A DNA stretch of 26,049 nt from Rhodospirillales bacterium (lineage in GTDB: Bacteria; Pseudomonadota; Alphaproteobacteria; UBA8366; JADFVY01): NCBI GenBank assembly GCA_024644185.1, contig JAHELM010000001.1:1-26049 (forward strand). The letters are read 5' to 3'. Below are positions 2,776 to 23,295 of the stretch, piece after piece (the stretch's first letter is position 1; the number at the start of each line of letters is the position of its first letter). The position numbers were made by a program, and so were the translations under genes. Below the pieces are notes generated by a model that was given only the letters and a program-made list of their open reading frames with translations, did no database searches and was not told where the DNA came from.

Positions 2776-4848
2776 TCAGCCGGCACGGATTTCGCGCAGG
2801 AAACGATCCACCTCGCCACGCAGGCTTTCCGCCTGGCGCGCCATGCCCTGGCTGGCACCGAGCACCTGGCCCGCCGCCGTGCCGGTTTCGCCGGCCGCCT
2901 TGCTGACATTCTCGATGTTCTGGTTGACCATCTGCGTGCCGCGCGCGGCCTGCTGGACGTTGCGGGCGATTTCCTGGGTGGACAGGCCCTGTTCCTCAAC
3001 CGCCGAGGCGATGGTGGTCGAGATATCGCTGATCTCGCCGATCACCGCGCGGATCTTCTGGATTGCCTCGACGGCTCCGCTGGTCTCTTCCTGTACGGCG
3101 AGAATCTGCGTCGATATCTCCTCGGTCGCCTTGGCCGTCTGGTTGGCCAGGTTCTTGACCTCCTGGGCCACCACCGCGAAGCCCTTGCCGGCCTCGCCGG
3201 CCCGCGCCGCCTCGATGGTGGCGTTCAGGGCCAGAAGATTGGTCTGCCCGGCGATGTTGTTGATCAGGCTGACCACGTCGCCGATCTTGCTCGCGGCCTC
3301 GGCCAGTCCCTGCACCGTATCGTTGGTGGCGTCCGCCTCGCGCACCGCATTGCTGGCAATCTTCGCCGACTGCGACACCTGGCGGCCGATCTCGGCGATC
3401 GAGGCCGACAGTTCCTCCGCCGTGGCGGCGACCGTCTGCACATTCGTGGTCGCCTGGTCGGAGGCACTGGCGACGTTGCCGGCCTGACGGCTGGTCTCCT
3501 CGGCCGTCGCCGACATCTGCTGGGCGGTGGCCTGCATCTCGGTGGCGGAAGACGACACGCCATCGACCACTTCCTTGACCGAACGCTCGAAGCGGTCGGC
3601 CAGCGCGATCATCACCTGGCGCTTTTCTTCCTCGGCGCGTTGCGCGGTGGCCGCCTGCGTTTGCTCCAGCCGGATCTTTTCGACGGCATTGTCCTTGAAG
3701 ACCTGGACGGCCTGGGCCATGTCCCCGACCTCGTCCTTGCGCCCGATATCGGGAATCCTGGTTTCCAGCTTGCCGCGCACGATGTCGGCCATGACCGAGG
3801 TCAGGCGGCTGACCGGACGCGAAATCGAGCTGCCGACCAGATAGGCGATCATCGCACTGAACACGATTCCCACCAGCGCCACCAGAAGGCCGATGCGGAT
3901 CAGGTCGTTCACCGGGGCCATCACCATGGCCATCGGGGCGACCACCTCCAGCGACCAGGGCGTGTCGATATCGCCGATGCGGATCGGCGCATAGACCTTG
4001 ATGGCGTCGTCGCCCAGCCGCAGCGACGCCTCGACGGTCCAGTACAATTCGCCCCGTTTCACCGCATCGCGAACACGGCCGGCATTACCGGAGTCGGAAA
4101 TTTCCTTCAGCAGCATCGCCTTGTCGGGGTGTGCCGCATAAGTGCCGTTATTGCCGATCATGGTGGCAAAACCGGTACCGTAGGGCTTGACCTCCGCCAC
4201 CAGTTCCTGCAAGCGGTCCAGCGGCAAATCGAAGCCGGCGACGCCGACGGCCTTGCCCTTGACCACCAGCGGCACGACCAGCGAGGTGATCAGCATTTCC
4301 TTGCCCCCGACCGAGTAGGCATAGGGGTCGATGATGGCGTTTTTCCGGTTCCGGAAGGCGATCTGGTAATAGTCGCCGGGACCGTCCGTCGCATAGTCGA
4401 GCAGCGGCTCGACCTCGATCTTTCCACTTGCCCGGTTCCAGTACGGAACGTAGCGCCCGGTCGCGTCATGCCCGGGCGTGTTGGCGAAATCCGCATCGCG
4501 ACCGTCGAGCGCGTTGGGTTCCCACCCGGTCCAGGCACCCAGCAATTCGGGATTACGCTCCAGAAAGCTGATCTGGATCTCGTCGAATTCTGCGCGGATC
4601 GGTGTCCGGGCATTCTTCAGGGCAAGCAACGCGCTACCCAGACCATGCGCCGTCGACAGGCTGCGCTGCAAAATACCGGAAATCTGCGCGGCGCTTTCCT
4701 CCGCCGTCTTGATCGCCAGTTGCTCGGCATCGCGCTTCGCCTGATCCGCGGCGAACCAGATCATCACACCCAGAACCGCGCCGGTCACCAGGGTGGCGGT
4801 CAACAGAACCGCACCCGTAATTCGCCACTTAAGGCTGAAATTGAACAT
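2776..4848 (-). CDS. Methyl-accepting chemotaxis protein (TM - dCache - TM - HAMP - signalling domain), 690 aa
   Basis: Two hydrophobic TM segments flank a periplasmic Cache-like domain; HAMP (ISRPVSRLT...RKDEVGDMAQA); hairpin-tip signature IAGQTNLLALNATIEAARAGEAGKGFAVVAQEVKNLA. ATG 4848 with GGGGA upstream. Confidence 0.95.
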   Translation of the reverse strand: MFNFSLKWRITGAVLLTATLVTGAVLGVMIWFAADQAKRDAEQLAIKTAEESAAQISGILQRSLSTAHGLGSALLALKNARTPIRAEFDEIQISFLERNPELLGAWTGWEPNALDGRDADFANTPGHDATGRYVPYWNRASGKIEVEPLLDYATDGPGDYYQIAFRNRKNAIIDPYAYSVGGKEMLITSLVVPLVVKGKAVGVAGFDLPLDRLQELVAEVKPYGTGFATMIGNNGTYAAHPDKAMLLKEISDSGNAGRVRDAVKRGELYWTVEASLRLGDDAIKVYAPIRIGDIDTPWSLEVVAPMAMVMAPVNDLIRIGLLVALVGIVFSAMIAYLVGSSISRPVSRLTSVMADIVRGKLETRIPDIGRKDEVGDMAQAVQVFKDNAVEKIRLEQTQAATAQRAEEEKRQVMIALADRFERSVKEVVDGVSSSATEMQATAQQMSATAEETSRQAGNVASASDQATTNVQTVAATAEELSASIAEIGRQVSQSAKIASNAVREADATNDTVQGLAEAASKIGDVVSLINNIAGQTNLLALNATIEAARAGEAGKGFAVVAQEVKNLANQTAKATEEISTQILAVQEETSGAVEAIQKIRAVIGEISDISTTIASAVEEQGLSTQEIARNVQQAARGTQMVNQNIENVSKAAGETGTAAGQVLGASQGMARQAESLRGEVDRFLREIRAG

Positions 4849-4949
4849 CGAGTTCCCCAATAAAACGAGATAAGTCCCGGGGGAAGCTATCCGGGAAATA
4901 ATTAATCAATTATGAGCGGCGACAGTTATATTTTTTTCTCGCCCATTGC

Positions 4950-10925: not shown

Positions 10926-13157
10926 CTATTTCCTGGTGGCGTCGGCGACGCCGTTCCAGTTGGCTGGCGGCGGCGTCAGGCGATAGGCCTCGATACGCTC
11001 GTCGATCAGTGTGTAGTATTTGTCCAGGCCGAAGCGCGGCGACAGCATCCGCCGGCAAACCCCGACCAAGTCCTGGGCGAAATCCCAGTCCTGATCGCGA
11101 TAGGCCGCAAGCATTGCCTCCTGCTCGGCCAGGCCGGCGGCGATTGTCGGATCCTGGCCCGCGCTCGCCTCGTCGAGCAATGTGAAGATGGTGACCGGCA
11201 CGGTCTTGCCGACGACGCGGATGCGGTCGAGTTCCAGCATGACGAAACCGGAAACGCGATTGCGCGTGGCGCCGCTCATCACGATGTCGACGCCATACTG
11301 TTTGCTCAACCCCTCCAGTCGCGAGGCGAGATTGACCTCGTCGCCCAGTGCCGAATAGTCGAACCGCTGCCGCGAACCCATATTGCCGACGCAGGCCAGG
11401 CCGGTGTTCAGCCCGATGCCGATCTTCAGCGGCGAGAAGGCGGTGCCCTGCTCGGCCGCCTCAGCCGCCAGTTCCTCGTTCAGCGGACCCATCCGGCGGT
11501 TCATTTCCAGCGCGGCCCTGACCGCATGGGTGGCATGATCGGGATCGTCCAGCGGCGCATTCCAGAACGCCATCATGGCGTCGCCCATGTATTTGTCGAT
11601 GGTGCCGCCATTCGCCAGGGTGACGTCGGTCACCGGCGTCAGGAAGCGGTTGACGAGGCTGGTCAACTGCTGCGCATCGTATTTTTCGGAAATTGTCGTG
11701 AAACCGCGCAGATCGCAGAACAGCAGCGTCAATTCGCGCGTCTCGCCGCCCAGATGCAGCTGGTCCGGATTGCGCGCCAGCCGCTCGACCATGACCGGCG
11801 ACATGTAATGGCTGAAAGCGTTGCGAATCTGCCGGCGTTCGGTCTCGCTGCGCAGATACCCCATCATCGACGAGCCCGAATAGACCATGGTGCCGGTGAT
11901 CGCGGGGTACACCGGATCCAGCAGCAGCCCATGCCGGGCGAACAGGTACCAGGACAGACCCGCGATGCCGGCGATGGCGCCGGTCGCCAGCACGGCGCTC
12001 CAACCGGCCCCGAGGCGCGACGTGGCGAGCGCCAGCACGATGCCGAGCACTGCCAGCAACGAAAGTTCGGCCCCGTCGGCCCAGTCGGGCCGTTCGAGAA
12101 ACTGCTGCAGCAAGATCTGCTCGGTCAGTTGCACCTGCAATTCGGCGCCCGATGTCGCCGGGCTGAGCGGCGTCGCCCAGGTGTCGTGCAAGCCGGCGGC
12201 GCTGGTGCCGACGAAGACGATGGCGCCGCGCAGCAACTCGGGATCGGCCTCGCCCGACAGCACCTTCCAGGCCGGAATACGGCGTTCCGGAACCGGCCCG
12301 GTATCGTACAGCCACATGCGGCCGTTGCGATCGGTGGGCACTATCATGCGGCCGACGCGGACATGGGTAATCCCGGTCTGCGCACCGCCCAGAACCTTGG
12401 CCCCGCTTGCGTTCGAGGCTCGCACCAGATAACCGCTGGCGCCCTGCGCGATGCGAAGCGATTCCAGCGCCGGGGTCGGGAACATGACCCCCATATAGTC
12501 GACCAGCAGCGGCACCCGGCGAACGAGCCCGTCATGTTCCGGCGTCAGATTGAACCCCGCCGCGCCGCGCCCCGCCGCCTCGATCTGCGGCAGGTTCAGC
12601 ACGGCCCCGGTATAGGTCTTGCCGAGAAAGGCCCGGGGATCGTCGCCGGCGAAGGCAAATCCGGCCTTCGCCACCAGCGCATCGCCGCCGCCACTGCCGT
12701 CGGTCAGCATGAACCCCGTCACGACATTCTTGGCGCGGTCGATCGCCTGGGCCAGCAGATCGTCATGGTCCGGCATCGCCGCCAGCTGTTCGCGCAGTGC
12801 CGCCATCTTCGGGCCGGCAGGCCAGGAGGCGATGAGCTGGGCCGGCGAGGTCCGGTCGGGCTCGGAAAACACGATGTCGAGGGTGATGGCCGCGGCGCCG
12901 GCGGCATTCAGCTTTTCCACCAGCGCCGCCACCTGGGTGCGCGGCCAGGGCCACTGGCCCACCCGGCTCAGGCTCTCGTCGTCCAGATCTATGAAACGCA
13001 CCGGCACCGGCTGGTATTTGCGCGGAAGGACCTGCTGGTAGGTATCGAAACTCTTCAGCCTGAGGTCGGACAGAAATTGCGGATCGGCGAATCGCAACTC
13101 CAGGGCCACGACGAGAACCAGACCCGCGAATACTATCTGCATCCAGCGACTGCGCAT
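10926..13157 (-). CDS. CHASE2-domain class III adenylate cyclase, 743 aa
   Basis: N-terminal TM; CHASE2 motifs (VRFIDLDDESL, GQWPWPR, DGLVRRVPL, VFVGTSA); three TMs; catalytic FCDLRGFT, DKYMGDA (adenine-specifying Lys) and GDEVNLASRLEG. ATG 13157 with GGAGG RBS. Confidence 0.93.
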   Translation of the reverse strand: MRSRWMQIVFAGLVLVVALELRFADPQFLSDLRLKSFDTYQQVLPRKYQPVPVRFIDLDDESLSRVGQWPWPRTQVAALVEKLNAAGAAAITLDIVFSEPDRTSPAQLIASWPAGPKMAALREQLAAMPDHDDLLAQAIDRAKNVVTGFMLTDGSGGGDALVAKAGFAFAGDDPRAFLGKTYTGAVLNLPQIEAAGRGAAGFNLTPEHDGLVRRVPLLVDYMGVMFPTPALESLRIAQGASGYLVRASNASGAKVLGGAQTGITHVRVGRMIVPTDRNGRMWLYDTGPVPERRIPAWKVLSGEADPELLRGAIVFVGTSAAGLHDTWATPLSPATSGAELQVQLTEQILLQQFLERPDWADGAELSLLAVLGIVLALATSRLGAGWSAVLATGAIAGIAGLSWYLFARHGLLLDPVYPAITGTMVYSGSSMMGYLRSETERRQIRNAFSHYMSPVMVERLARNPDQLHLGGETRELTLLFCDLRGFTTISEKYDAQQLTSLVNRFLTPVTDVTLANGGTIDKYMGDAMMAFWNAPLDDPDHATHAVRAALEMNRRMGPLNEELAAEAAEQGTAFSPLKIGIGLNTGLACVGNMGSRQRFDYSALGDEVNLASRLEGLSKQYGVDIVMSGATRNRVSGFVMLELDRIRVVGKTVPVTIFTLLDEASAGQDPTIAAGLAEQEAMLAAYRDQDWDFAQDLVGVCRRMLSPRFGLDKYYTLIDERIEAYRLTPPPANWNGVADATRK

Positions 13158-13301
13158 ACGACGCCCCTCCCCGAGGCATTTTCTTCGAACGCTCGCCGCT
13201 TGCGCGATGTCGCGCATATGACGAATTCACCGGTTTCCCGATGGGCTGCCACCCCTGGCTGCTGCCCGCTGCGCTTACGGTTGTTCACATTCCGGTTTAT
13301 T

Positions 13302-13316
13302 TTAATTCAATTTTAA
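13302..13316. promoter_or_regulatory. Perfect CtrA-type box TTAA-N7-TTAA between the divergent cyclase and FecR genes
   Basis: TTAA-TTCAATT-TTAA, with an extra TTAA at 13320-13323. Confidence 0.6.
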
Positions 13317-13381
13317 GGTTTAATCAAAGGGTCTGGTGGGAGACGTATAGCGGGAGCGAGGCGTTTACGCTTCGACGAACA

Positions 13382-14533
13382 ATGCACAAATGTGGCTCTT
13401 TGCGGACCCCGGCCGGGGCGGCATGGATTCATCGGCTTGCGGGACCTGTGTTCGCGGCCGCTGTTCTGTTGTCGGGCGGCGCGGGGCTGGCCGCGGAAAC
13501 GCCGGGGATCGGCGTCACCGCGATCGTGGTCAAGCAGGTCGAGGGCGTGTTGTCGGCGGAACGGCGGCAGTTGGCGCTGGCCGATGACGTCTATCGGAAC
13601 GAGGTGGTGGCGACCGGGCAGGAAAGCGCTTCGGAAATCCATCTGGCGGACGATACGCGCGTAACCGTGGGTCCGAACTCCCAGCTTGTGCTCGACGAGT
13701 TCGTGTATGACGGCACCACCGGACAAGGCAATCTGGCTCTGCATGCCACGCAAGGCGTCTTCCGCTTCTTTTCCGGCCAGATGCCCCACGAATCCTACAA
13801 GATCGGCGCGCCGGCCGTCAGTATCGGCGTCCGCGGCACTGTCCTGGTGGTGGTGATCCGCGAGGATGGCGCGGTCGCGGTAATCCTGGAATCCGATGAC
13901 GGCATCGACGTCACCGATGCGCATGACCGGTCGCTTCTGATCGACCGGCCCGGCCTGGCCACGGTGACGTTGCCGGACGGCAGCCTGAGCCCGCCCGGCC
14001 CGCCGCCCGCATGGGCGCTGGAGAGAGTGCGCGCGATGGACCGTGTCATCGCCAGCGCCAGCGCGCCGTTCGTCCCCATGCCGTTGCAGCGGGCCGAGAC
14101 CGGCGACCGGGACGTGGCTGAAGCGCCGCCACACTCCCCGCCGCCCGACGTGACTCCGCCGCCGGATCCGGAGGACGACCCGCCGCCGCCCGACGTAACG
14201 CCACCGTCCGAGCCCGATGACGACGTGACTCCGCCCCCGGCGGACGATCCGGCGCCGCCGACCGGGTCGGAGGATGACGACAAGGAACGCGGCATCCCGC
14301 GCGCCGAGGACAATCAGGACCCGGCCGACATGCCGGACGGGCTGGAACAGGCGGAGGAGAATGCGGATCCGCATGCCACGGACCCGGGCCCGGTGCCCGG
14401 CGGCAATGGCAAGAGCGATGACGGCGACGATGAAGCTGCCGGCGATTCCGGCGGTCCCGGGAACAGCGGCGACGCCATCCCGGAAGGTGTCCCGGCCTTC
14501 GGCAAGGGGAAAGGCAAGGGCAAGGGCGACTGA
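13382..14533 (+). CDS. Secreted FecR-domain protein with a long Pro/Asp/Gly-rich C-terminal tail, 383 aa
   Basis: Signal-like segment (VFAAAVLLSGGAGLA/A); FecR motifs (DVYRNEVVATG, DDTRVTVGPNSQL, GVFRFFSG, SIGVRGT); low-complexity tail. Start ATG 13382 is inferred. Confidence 0.85.
   Translation: MHKCGSLRTPAGAAWIHRLAGPVFAAAVLLSGGAGLAAETPGIGVTAIVVKQVEGVLSAERRQLALADDVYRNEVVATGQESASEIHLADDTRVTVGPNSQLVLDEFVYDGTTGQGNLALHATQGVFRFFSGQMPHESYKIGAPAVSIGVRGTVLVVVIREDGAVAVILESDDGIDVTDAHDRSLLIDRPGLATVTLPDGSLSPPGPPPAWALERVRAMDRVIASASAPFVPMPLQRAETGDRDVAEAPPHSPPPDVTPPPDPEDDPPPPDVTPPSEPDDDVTPPPADDPAPPTGSEDDDKERGIPRAEDNQDPADMPDGLEQAEENADPHATDPGPVPGGNGKSDDGDDEAAGDSGGPGNSGDAIPEGVPAFGKGKGKGKGD
14138..14239 (+). 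repeat. Three DVTPP proline-rich repeats in the FecR tail
   Basis: GACGT(G/A)AC(T/G)CC(G/A)CC units at 14147, 14192 and 14222. Confidence 0.8.

Positions 14534-22257: not shown

Positions 22258-23295
<1,038 letters not shown>

Follow-up and report, generated by a model that had tools for sequence, protein, structure and literature searches.

The divergent cyclase and FecR genes

A stretch of 26,049 nucleotides (hereafter the window), which is contig C237 of a 2.9-Mb metagenome-assembled genome (MAG; G000, 79% complete) of a Rhodospirillales bacterium, was analysed with respect to a divergent gene pair and the CtrA-type box TTAA-N7-TTAA located between the two genes. The pair encodes a CHASE2 class III adenylate cyclase and a secreted FecR-domain protein. 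Sequencing runs place the MAG in sediment metagenomes. The original prediction, made from the letters of the window, had proposed that CtrA controls an envelope-sensing cyclic AMP (cAMP) module in motile cells. The features of the locus are as follows.

10926–13157, minus strand: gene for the CHASE2 class III adenylate cyclase, 743 amino acids from ATG 13157
13158–13381, no strand: divergent control region of 224 bp, non-coding, between the cyclase and fecR starts
13299–13327, minus strand: predicted sigma-70-like promoter toward the cyclase, with -35 TTGATT (13327–13322), a 17-nt spacer and -10 TAAAAT (13304–13299)
13302–13316, no strand: perfect CtrA-type box TTAA-N7-TTAA, TTAATTCAATTTTAA, from a pattern search
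13313–13327, no strand: overlapping one-mismatch box TTAA-N7-TCAA, from a pattern search
13320–13334, no strand: position of the box in relatives, a perfect TTAA-N7-TTAA in 14 of 14 distinct relatives, from the orthologue alignment
13382–14533, plus strand: gene for the secreted FecR-domain protein, 383 amino acids, from Pfam FecR match, hydropathy, tail composition and orthologues

The open reading frames on both sides of the gap extend from 10926 to 13217 on the minus strand (763 amino acids) and from 13241 to 14533 on the plus strand (430 amino acids). The most likely start codon of the cyclase gene is ATG 13157, which lies behind the ribosome-binding sequence GGGGAGGGG and is also used by the orthologues, and that of fecR is ATG 13382, which precedes a signal peptide. 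With these starts the two genes stand head-to-head across a gap of 224 bp, as had been described before. An in-frame extension upstream of fecR (13241–13381) was considered as coding sequence and rejected, since stop codons interrupt this frame in the relatives. The gap gave no match to an Rfam family and no meaningful repeat was found there.

The cyclase matched the Pfam families CHASE2 (2.3e-52) and Guanylate_cyc (7e-18). According to Pfam and hydropathy it consists of an N-terminal transmembrane helix, a periplasmic CHASE2 domain, a bundle of transmembrane helices and a cytoplasmic cyclase domain. The solved structures closest to the catalytic domain are those of adenylate cyclases, with CyaB of Pseudomonas aeruginosa (3r5g) at 9e-33. 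Alignment to CyaB 3r5g and Cya 2w01 (FCDLRGFT, KYMGD, FDYSALGDEVNLASRLE) revealed that both metal-binding Asp residues, the Lys/Asp pair for ATP specificity and the Asn/Arg residues are conserved. Since all of these are kept, cAMP is the likely product, and the Lys/Asp pair typical of adenylate cyclases agrees with the cAMP-making enzyme that had been proposed. Domain order and catalytic residues both assign the protein to the CHASE2 class III adenylate cyclases of the CyaD1 type.

The FecR protein comprises a cleavable signal peptide, a FecR beta-sandwich domain (PF04773, 2.9e-10, the only domain matched in Pfam) and a tail of 143 amino acids rich in Pro, Asp and Gly. The orthologues have the same architecture and in addition an R-G-(L/I)-P-R-A motif. 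In many relatives a second, shorter FecR-domain gene directly follows the first (L295, L301, L305, L042); a single FecR gene is present in the window and at a few other loci.

Occurrence of the box in the window and in the genome

A perfect TTAA-N7-TTAA had been noticed in the gap and indeed occupies positions 13302–13316. Together with the overlapping one-mismatch box it forms three half-sites at an 11-bp phase. In dinucleotide shuffles of the window 0.04 perfect boxes are expected; the earlier estimate of about 0.02 per 26 kb is matched by the mononucleotide expectation, which amounts to 2.1 per 2.9-Mb genome. A perfect box arises by chance in 0.29% of shuffles of the 224-bp gap and in 1.1% of those of its 61-bp AT-rich core. 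One other perfect copy is present in the window (23273–23287). It lies within the final codons of mreB, with mreC following after 65 nt, and is directly followed by a one-mismatch box TCAA-N7-TTAA (to 23302), a tandem layout like that at 13302–13327.

The MAG encodes an orthologue of CtrA (423 bits against an NCBIfam cut-off of 350) with REC and Trans_reg_C domains, as well as ChpT and SciP, the gene for the latter adjoining ctrA (C260:4030-4701); a search for GcrA in the 79%-complete MAG gave no match. TTAA is a rare word in the genome, with 640 copies in 2.9 Mb, and pairs of it show a specific spacing: 33 pairs are separated by 7 nt, compared to 1–8 at each other spacing from N0 to N15. As AT-richness would raise every spacing and only N7 is enriched, roughly nine in ten of the N7 sites can be regarded as signal. 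A crude gene call based on the GC content of third codon positions places about 30 of the 33 outside well-supported coding sequence. Over all 33 sites the distance from box to -10 shows a weak peak 11–12 nt after the box, which is too weak to assign the target strand.

Genes following the N7 sites include four of the 14 MCPsignal genes and a fifth, truncated chemoreceptor gene, while about 0.2 chemoreceptor genes are expected by chance for about 35 targets among about 3,000 genes. One MCP gene with an upstream box is on contig C261. Further targets encode a CpaA-type prepilin peptidase, a sigma-54 activator, a single-domain receiver protein, a PAS protein, ClpX, HU, RpoZ, an L,D-transpeptidase, an OmpA-like protein and MreC. 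The set is similar to the direct CtrA regulon of Sinorhizobium meliloti, to which mcp genes, flagellins and pilA1 belong (PMC4433202). In Hyphomonas, TTAA-N7-TTAA is the consensus derived by chromatin immunoprecipitation (PMC7200025).

Two of the sites were noted individually. A perfect box at C319:4109-4123 (L139) is located between a flp pilin gene and a gene for a CpaA-type prepilin peptidase on the same strand (Peptidase_A24, 7.6e-12), which suggests that Tad pilus assembly may be under CtrA control. On contig C212 (L126:1-2466) a perfect box precedes a gene for a pyridine-nucleotide oxidoreductase; 94 bp behind this gene, and likely in the same operon, follows a gene for a cyclic nucleotide (cNMP)-binding domain fused to a second oxidoreductase domain. 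This protein is a possible cyclic-nucleotide effector within the same regulon. Altogether the MAG has eight cNMP-binding matches, two of which are Crp/Fnr-type regulators.

The motile cells of the original prediction, if taken in the flagellar sense, were not recovered. FlhA and flagellar rod-protein families were detected in none of the 14 genomes of the family (f1, G000–G013), one of which is closed, under conditions in which the controls responded, and no flagellin was found in this MAG. Flagellar motility therefore finds no support. CheW is encoded in 13 and Flp pilins in 12 of the 14 genomes, and the lineage possesses a chemosensory system, with about 14 chemoreceptor genes, and Tad pili. 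The family thus represents a case of a CtrA regulon without a flagellum, and che-type genes adjoin ctrA and sciP on contig C260.

Conservation and turnover of the box and its overlap with a predicted promoter

Orthologous loci were gathered from related genomes and metagenome assemblies and yielded 15 distinct promoter sequences including that of the window. They share the gene order MFS, cyclase (minus strand), FecR (plus strand), sometimes a second FecR gene, SerB-like hydrolase (minus strand) and MiaA. The intergenic DNA is poorly conserved with the exception of one alignable island. Within this island the relatives carry their perfect box, 18 bp downstream of the window box, toward fecR. 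Five different spacers occur in it (TCAAAGG, TCAACCG, TCAAAGA, TAAAGAC and TCAAAAC), with both TTAA halves intact throughout, and no second perfect box is present in loci of up to 8.9 kb. The window retains the first half-site alone of the relatives' box (TTAATCAAAGGGTCT) and has lost the distal half, and it has gained TTAA at 13302 and 13313, which creates the new perfect box 18 bp upstream. Some relatives show this upstream register in partial form. Loss of the old box together with gain of a new one indicates the pattern that is expected of binding-site turnover under selection. In strain variants from two other sediment runs 10 substitutions were counted in 13158–13294 (137 bp) and none in 13295–13386, so that the window box is invariant among them. 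The conservation that the original prediction required was seen for a perfect box, kept in all 14 relatives; the exact register of the window is not the conserved one.

Three further observations concern individual loci or the search itself. In L002:612-960 (minus strand) about 70 bp are inserted in the cyclase-proximal part of the gap. The arms of this insertion are long inverted repeats, CCAATGCTTGCTGAT...ATCAGCAAGCATTGG, and it may be a small mobile or REP-like element. The closed genome G003 of the sister genus g4 has an orthologue of the cyclase gene (L006, G003:C1:357415-362145) with a run of N in its 5′ part; near this interrupted orthologue no FecR gene was detected with the FecR query used. 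In a scan of metagenome contigs with the island pattern, 119 among the at least 120 loci listed were unrelated AT-rich DNA.

The enrichment of N7, the CtrA/ChpT/SciP set and the box in 14 of 14 orthologous promoters uphold the proposal of a CtrA-type site, and on this sequence evidence the box at 13302–13316 is very probably a real CtrA site to which the protein binds. It appears highly improbable that the island is recognised in place of CtrA by a different factor with affinity for AT-rich DNA, for example a regulator of the MucR type, of the IHF/HU type or another member of the OmpR family. MucR proteins do co-occupy many CtrA promoters of Caulobacter (PMC4287350), and several phased T-rich elements are found in the region, but the exact TTAA-N7-TTAA is the very pattern enriched in the genome upstream of CtrA-type targets, and no further conserved motif was found beyond the promoter hexamers and the half-sites.

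A consensus scan found one sigma-70-like promoter in the region, namely the one directed toward the cyclase, with a predicted transcription start at about 13292. The -35 hexamer is kept in 14 and the -10 hexamer, (T/C/A)AAAAT, in all of the 15 sequences, always 17 nt apart and separated by a variable spacer, and the two best-conserved blocks of the island coincide with these hexamers. Both registers of the box overlap this predicted promoter. Relative to the predicted cyclase start, the relatives' box extends from about -42 to -28 and the window box from about -24 to -10. On the fecR side, a weakly conserved GT(A/G)T(T/C)G follows 9–10 nt after the relatives' box and would place that box at about -36 to -22 for fecR; the window box would lie at about -55 to -40. 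The transcription start predicted on the plus strand, for fecR, is at about 13355.

Several observations weigh against a role of CtrA at this locus. The box lies within a stretch of 81% AT that doubles as promoter, and a 36-bp core of this composition yields a perfect box in 4% of shuffles; part of the conservation of the box may therefore stem from the -35 and -10 hexamers. The register of the window box differs from the one conserved by the relatives, and the flanking C of TTAAC, present at 23 of the 33 genome sites, is missing on both sides of it. The candidate -10 of fecR is weak, and no clear -10 is found at the usual distance from the window box. Both promoters are predictions, the sole RNA run from the source sample having given no coverage of the locus. 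At more distant loci with the same gene pair no box was found: loci of the same order in which fecR precedes the cyclase gene on the same strand have none upstream of fecR even with one mismatch allowed, and it is absent from two or three loci of FecR homologues with 41–45% identity and from Elusimicrobia. According to this, the box is a feature specific to this family.

These points could be accounted for by a box that is a by-product of ordinary AT-rich promoter sequence (-35, -10 and UP-like elements), with no binding of CtrA and CtrA-independent transcription, and the coincidence of the best-conserved blocks with TTGATT and TAAAAT fits this explanation. Nevertheless, we consider it rather unlikely. 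Clustering of A and T should raise all spacings, and only N7 is enriched genome-wide. The distal TTAA of the relatives' box belongs to neither hexamer, and all 14 sequences retain it while the neighbouring spacer bases vary. In L296 the G of the -35 hexamer has been lost, yet both TTAA halves are retained. Finally, the new full box arises in the one genome that does not have the old one.

For Caulobacter it was reported that full CtrA motifs with the 5′ end near -35 to -49 activate and that motifs over the -10 repress, and that a single box is able to activate one promoter while repressing the neighbouring one (PMC4287350). By analogy, CtrA is predicted to activate fecR and to hinder the cyclase promoter in the arrangement of the window, and the arrangement in the relatives could allow activation of either gene or of both. 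Joint control of the two genes, and its sign, are inferred here from this geometry.

CtrA might also bind and serve fecR alone. The cyclase gene would then be expressed constitutively from a promoter of its own, and cAMP synthesis would escape control by CtrA. The distances to the two genes are in line with such an arrangement: from the end of the box to the fecR start codon it is 59–65 nt in window and relatives, whereas the cyclase start is found 160–254 nt from a conserved anchor base G (13318 in the window). Furthermore, the position of the relatives' box at about -36 to -22 of the plus-strand promoter corresponds to the activating geometry of Caulobacter (PMC4287350). Binding that is neutral for the cyclase is however hard to envisage, because both registers overlap the core hexamers of its best promoter candidate, and this promoter is conserved in all 15 sequences. 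We give little credence to control of fecR alone.

We therefore prefer the reading that the gap is a CtrA-controlled divergent promoter region of cyclase and fecR, to which we assign a probability of roughly 65% on the basis of the sequence comparisons. In this model the CckA-ChpT relay would phosphorylate CtrA, and CtrA~P would bind the perfect box at 13302–13316 and probably also the flanking half-sites at 13320 and 13324. The bound protein would cover the spacer and the -10 of the cyclase promoter and would thereby hinder RNA polymerase there, while the same box, about 50 bp ahead of the likely start site of fecR, would be in a position that permits activation by CtrA. In the sister genera the box, 18 bp nearer to fecR, would lie over the cyclase -35 and at the classical -35 position for fecR. 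The cyclase itself would produce cAMP when its CHASE2 domain senses a periplasmic cue. A more far-reaching version can be put forward tentatively and is doubtful at present: CtrA may wire the phosphorelay directly to cAMP in a flagellum-less, Tad-piliated sediment family, through one site over the cyclase core promoter and in an activating position for fecR that would toggle between sensor and partner, the overlap being kept despite the shift of 18 bp.

Relation to known systems and biological meaning

As typed by Pfam, the neighbours of the pair are DegP, an MFS transporter, a SerB-like HAD hydrolase, MiaA and IlvI, and they include no barrel or TPR gene, which confirms that no barrel partner is adjacent. 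A chemoreceptor gene is located at 2776–4860 of the window (MCPsignal match 2899–3378, minus strand) and has no upstream box with one mismatch or less. The FecR protein was also considered as a FecR-type anti-sigma factor. It has the periplasmic FecR domain (PF04773) in common with those of Escherichia coli but contains a cleavable signal peptide instead of a cytoplasmic anti-sigma domain. This candidate was rejected, as PF04773 is the only domain behind the signal peptide, Pfam detected no cytoplasmic anti-sigma domain, and the neighbours are MFS, DegP, SerB and MiaA, with no gene for an extracytoplasmic function (ECF) sigma factor or a TonB-dependent receptor nearby.

The closest functional parallel is found in S. 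meliloti, where the CHASE2 cyclases CyaD1, CyaD2 and CyaK sense a plant signal via the NsrA barrel and act via Clr (PMC5498481, PMC13001267). Both systems share the receptor composed of CHASE2 and a class III cyclase and a non-cytoplasmic FecR-domain protein, which is functionally associated with the receptor in S. meliloti (PMC5498481), and Crp-family proteins are encoded in both, two of the Crp/Fnr type in the MAG. In contrast to the SMc02177/SMc02178/NsrA/Clr system, the gap carries a CtrA box and no Clr-type box (TGTT-N8-AACA, one mismatch allowed). For an unlinked TPR or barrel partner, an Azospirillaceae TPR-barrel protein and the DUF481 family served as queries, and the 79%-complete MAG yielded no convincing match.

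Two roles come into question for the FecR protein, that of a partner of the cyclase in the periplasm and that of a pathway output. cAMP-Clr induces its counterpart SMc02177, which contains a FecR domain, and signal perception does not depend on that protein (PMC5498481). By analogy with this protein the FecR protein may be a pathway output rather than a co-sensor. An envelope-sensing role of FecR within the module of the original prediction could not be established, as the FecR-domain neighbour in S. meliloti acts downstream of cAMP-Clr (PMC5498481).

The association of CHASE2 cyclases with FecR-domain and TPR or barrel genes, from which the original prediction had started, was recovered at other loci and agrees with the literature (PMC5498481): a CHASE2 cyclase gene lies within 4 kb in 34 of the 80 loci retrieved by similarity to FecR. 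In Elusimicrobia and in an Azospirillaceae MAG the cyclase gene is divergent from an operon of TPR gene and fecR, in this order, a divergence shared with the window. A TPR protein of 458–489 amino acids is encoded between cyclase and fecR in these triads, with a weak match to the DUF481 barrel in the Azospirillaceae locus L075. The family of the window differs in that the TPR/barrel gene is missing at the locus, and the triads differ in that they have no TTAA-N7-TTAA box. A gene for a periplasmic FecR-domain protein next to that of a CHASE2 sensor is also known from a Burkholderia operon that encodes a response regulator, a LysM-FecR protein and a CHASE2 histidine kinase (PMC5192318). The sensor there signals through a histidine kinase, an operon takes the place of the divergent pair, and the host is a betaproteobacterium without CtrA (PMC5192318).

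With the CtrA promoters of Caulobacter crescentus and S. meliloti the locus shares the motif and the set of CtrA, ChpT and SciP (PMC4287350, PMC4433202, PMC7200025), and intergenic boxes likewise precede chemoreceptor and pilus genes. Position-dependent effects and the use of one box for two neighbouring promoters, as at ctrA P2/P3, are known from there. What sets the present case apart is the target, a CHASE2 cyclase/FecR pair, in a lineage without detectable flagellar genes, the CtrA site being predicted from sequence. The S. meliloti CtrA study and the supplements examined contain no mention of the CHASE2 cyclase/FecR pair (PMC4433202), and no report of CtrA control over an adenylate cyclase or a CHASE2/FecR pair was found in the literature searched.

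Flagellar, pilus, chemoreceptor, cell-division and cyclic di-GMP genes are among the known members of CtrA regulons. The locus is a clean natural case of binding-site turnover within a fixed promoter scaffold, and for this reason it lends itself to tests of how box position determines activation or repression. The widespread and poorly understood pairing of CHASE2 and FecR would gain a regulatory handle. If the proposed control is true, two layers of signalling, phosphorelay and cAMP, would be joined in an uncultured, flagellum-less sediment bacterium, in which CtrA boxes precede chemoreceptor and Tad-pilus genes in place of flagellar ones. Should the wiring be direct, it would be the first direct link from CtrA to cAMP.

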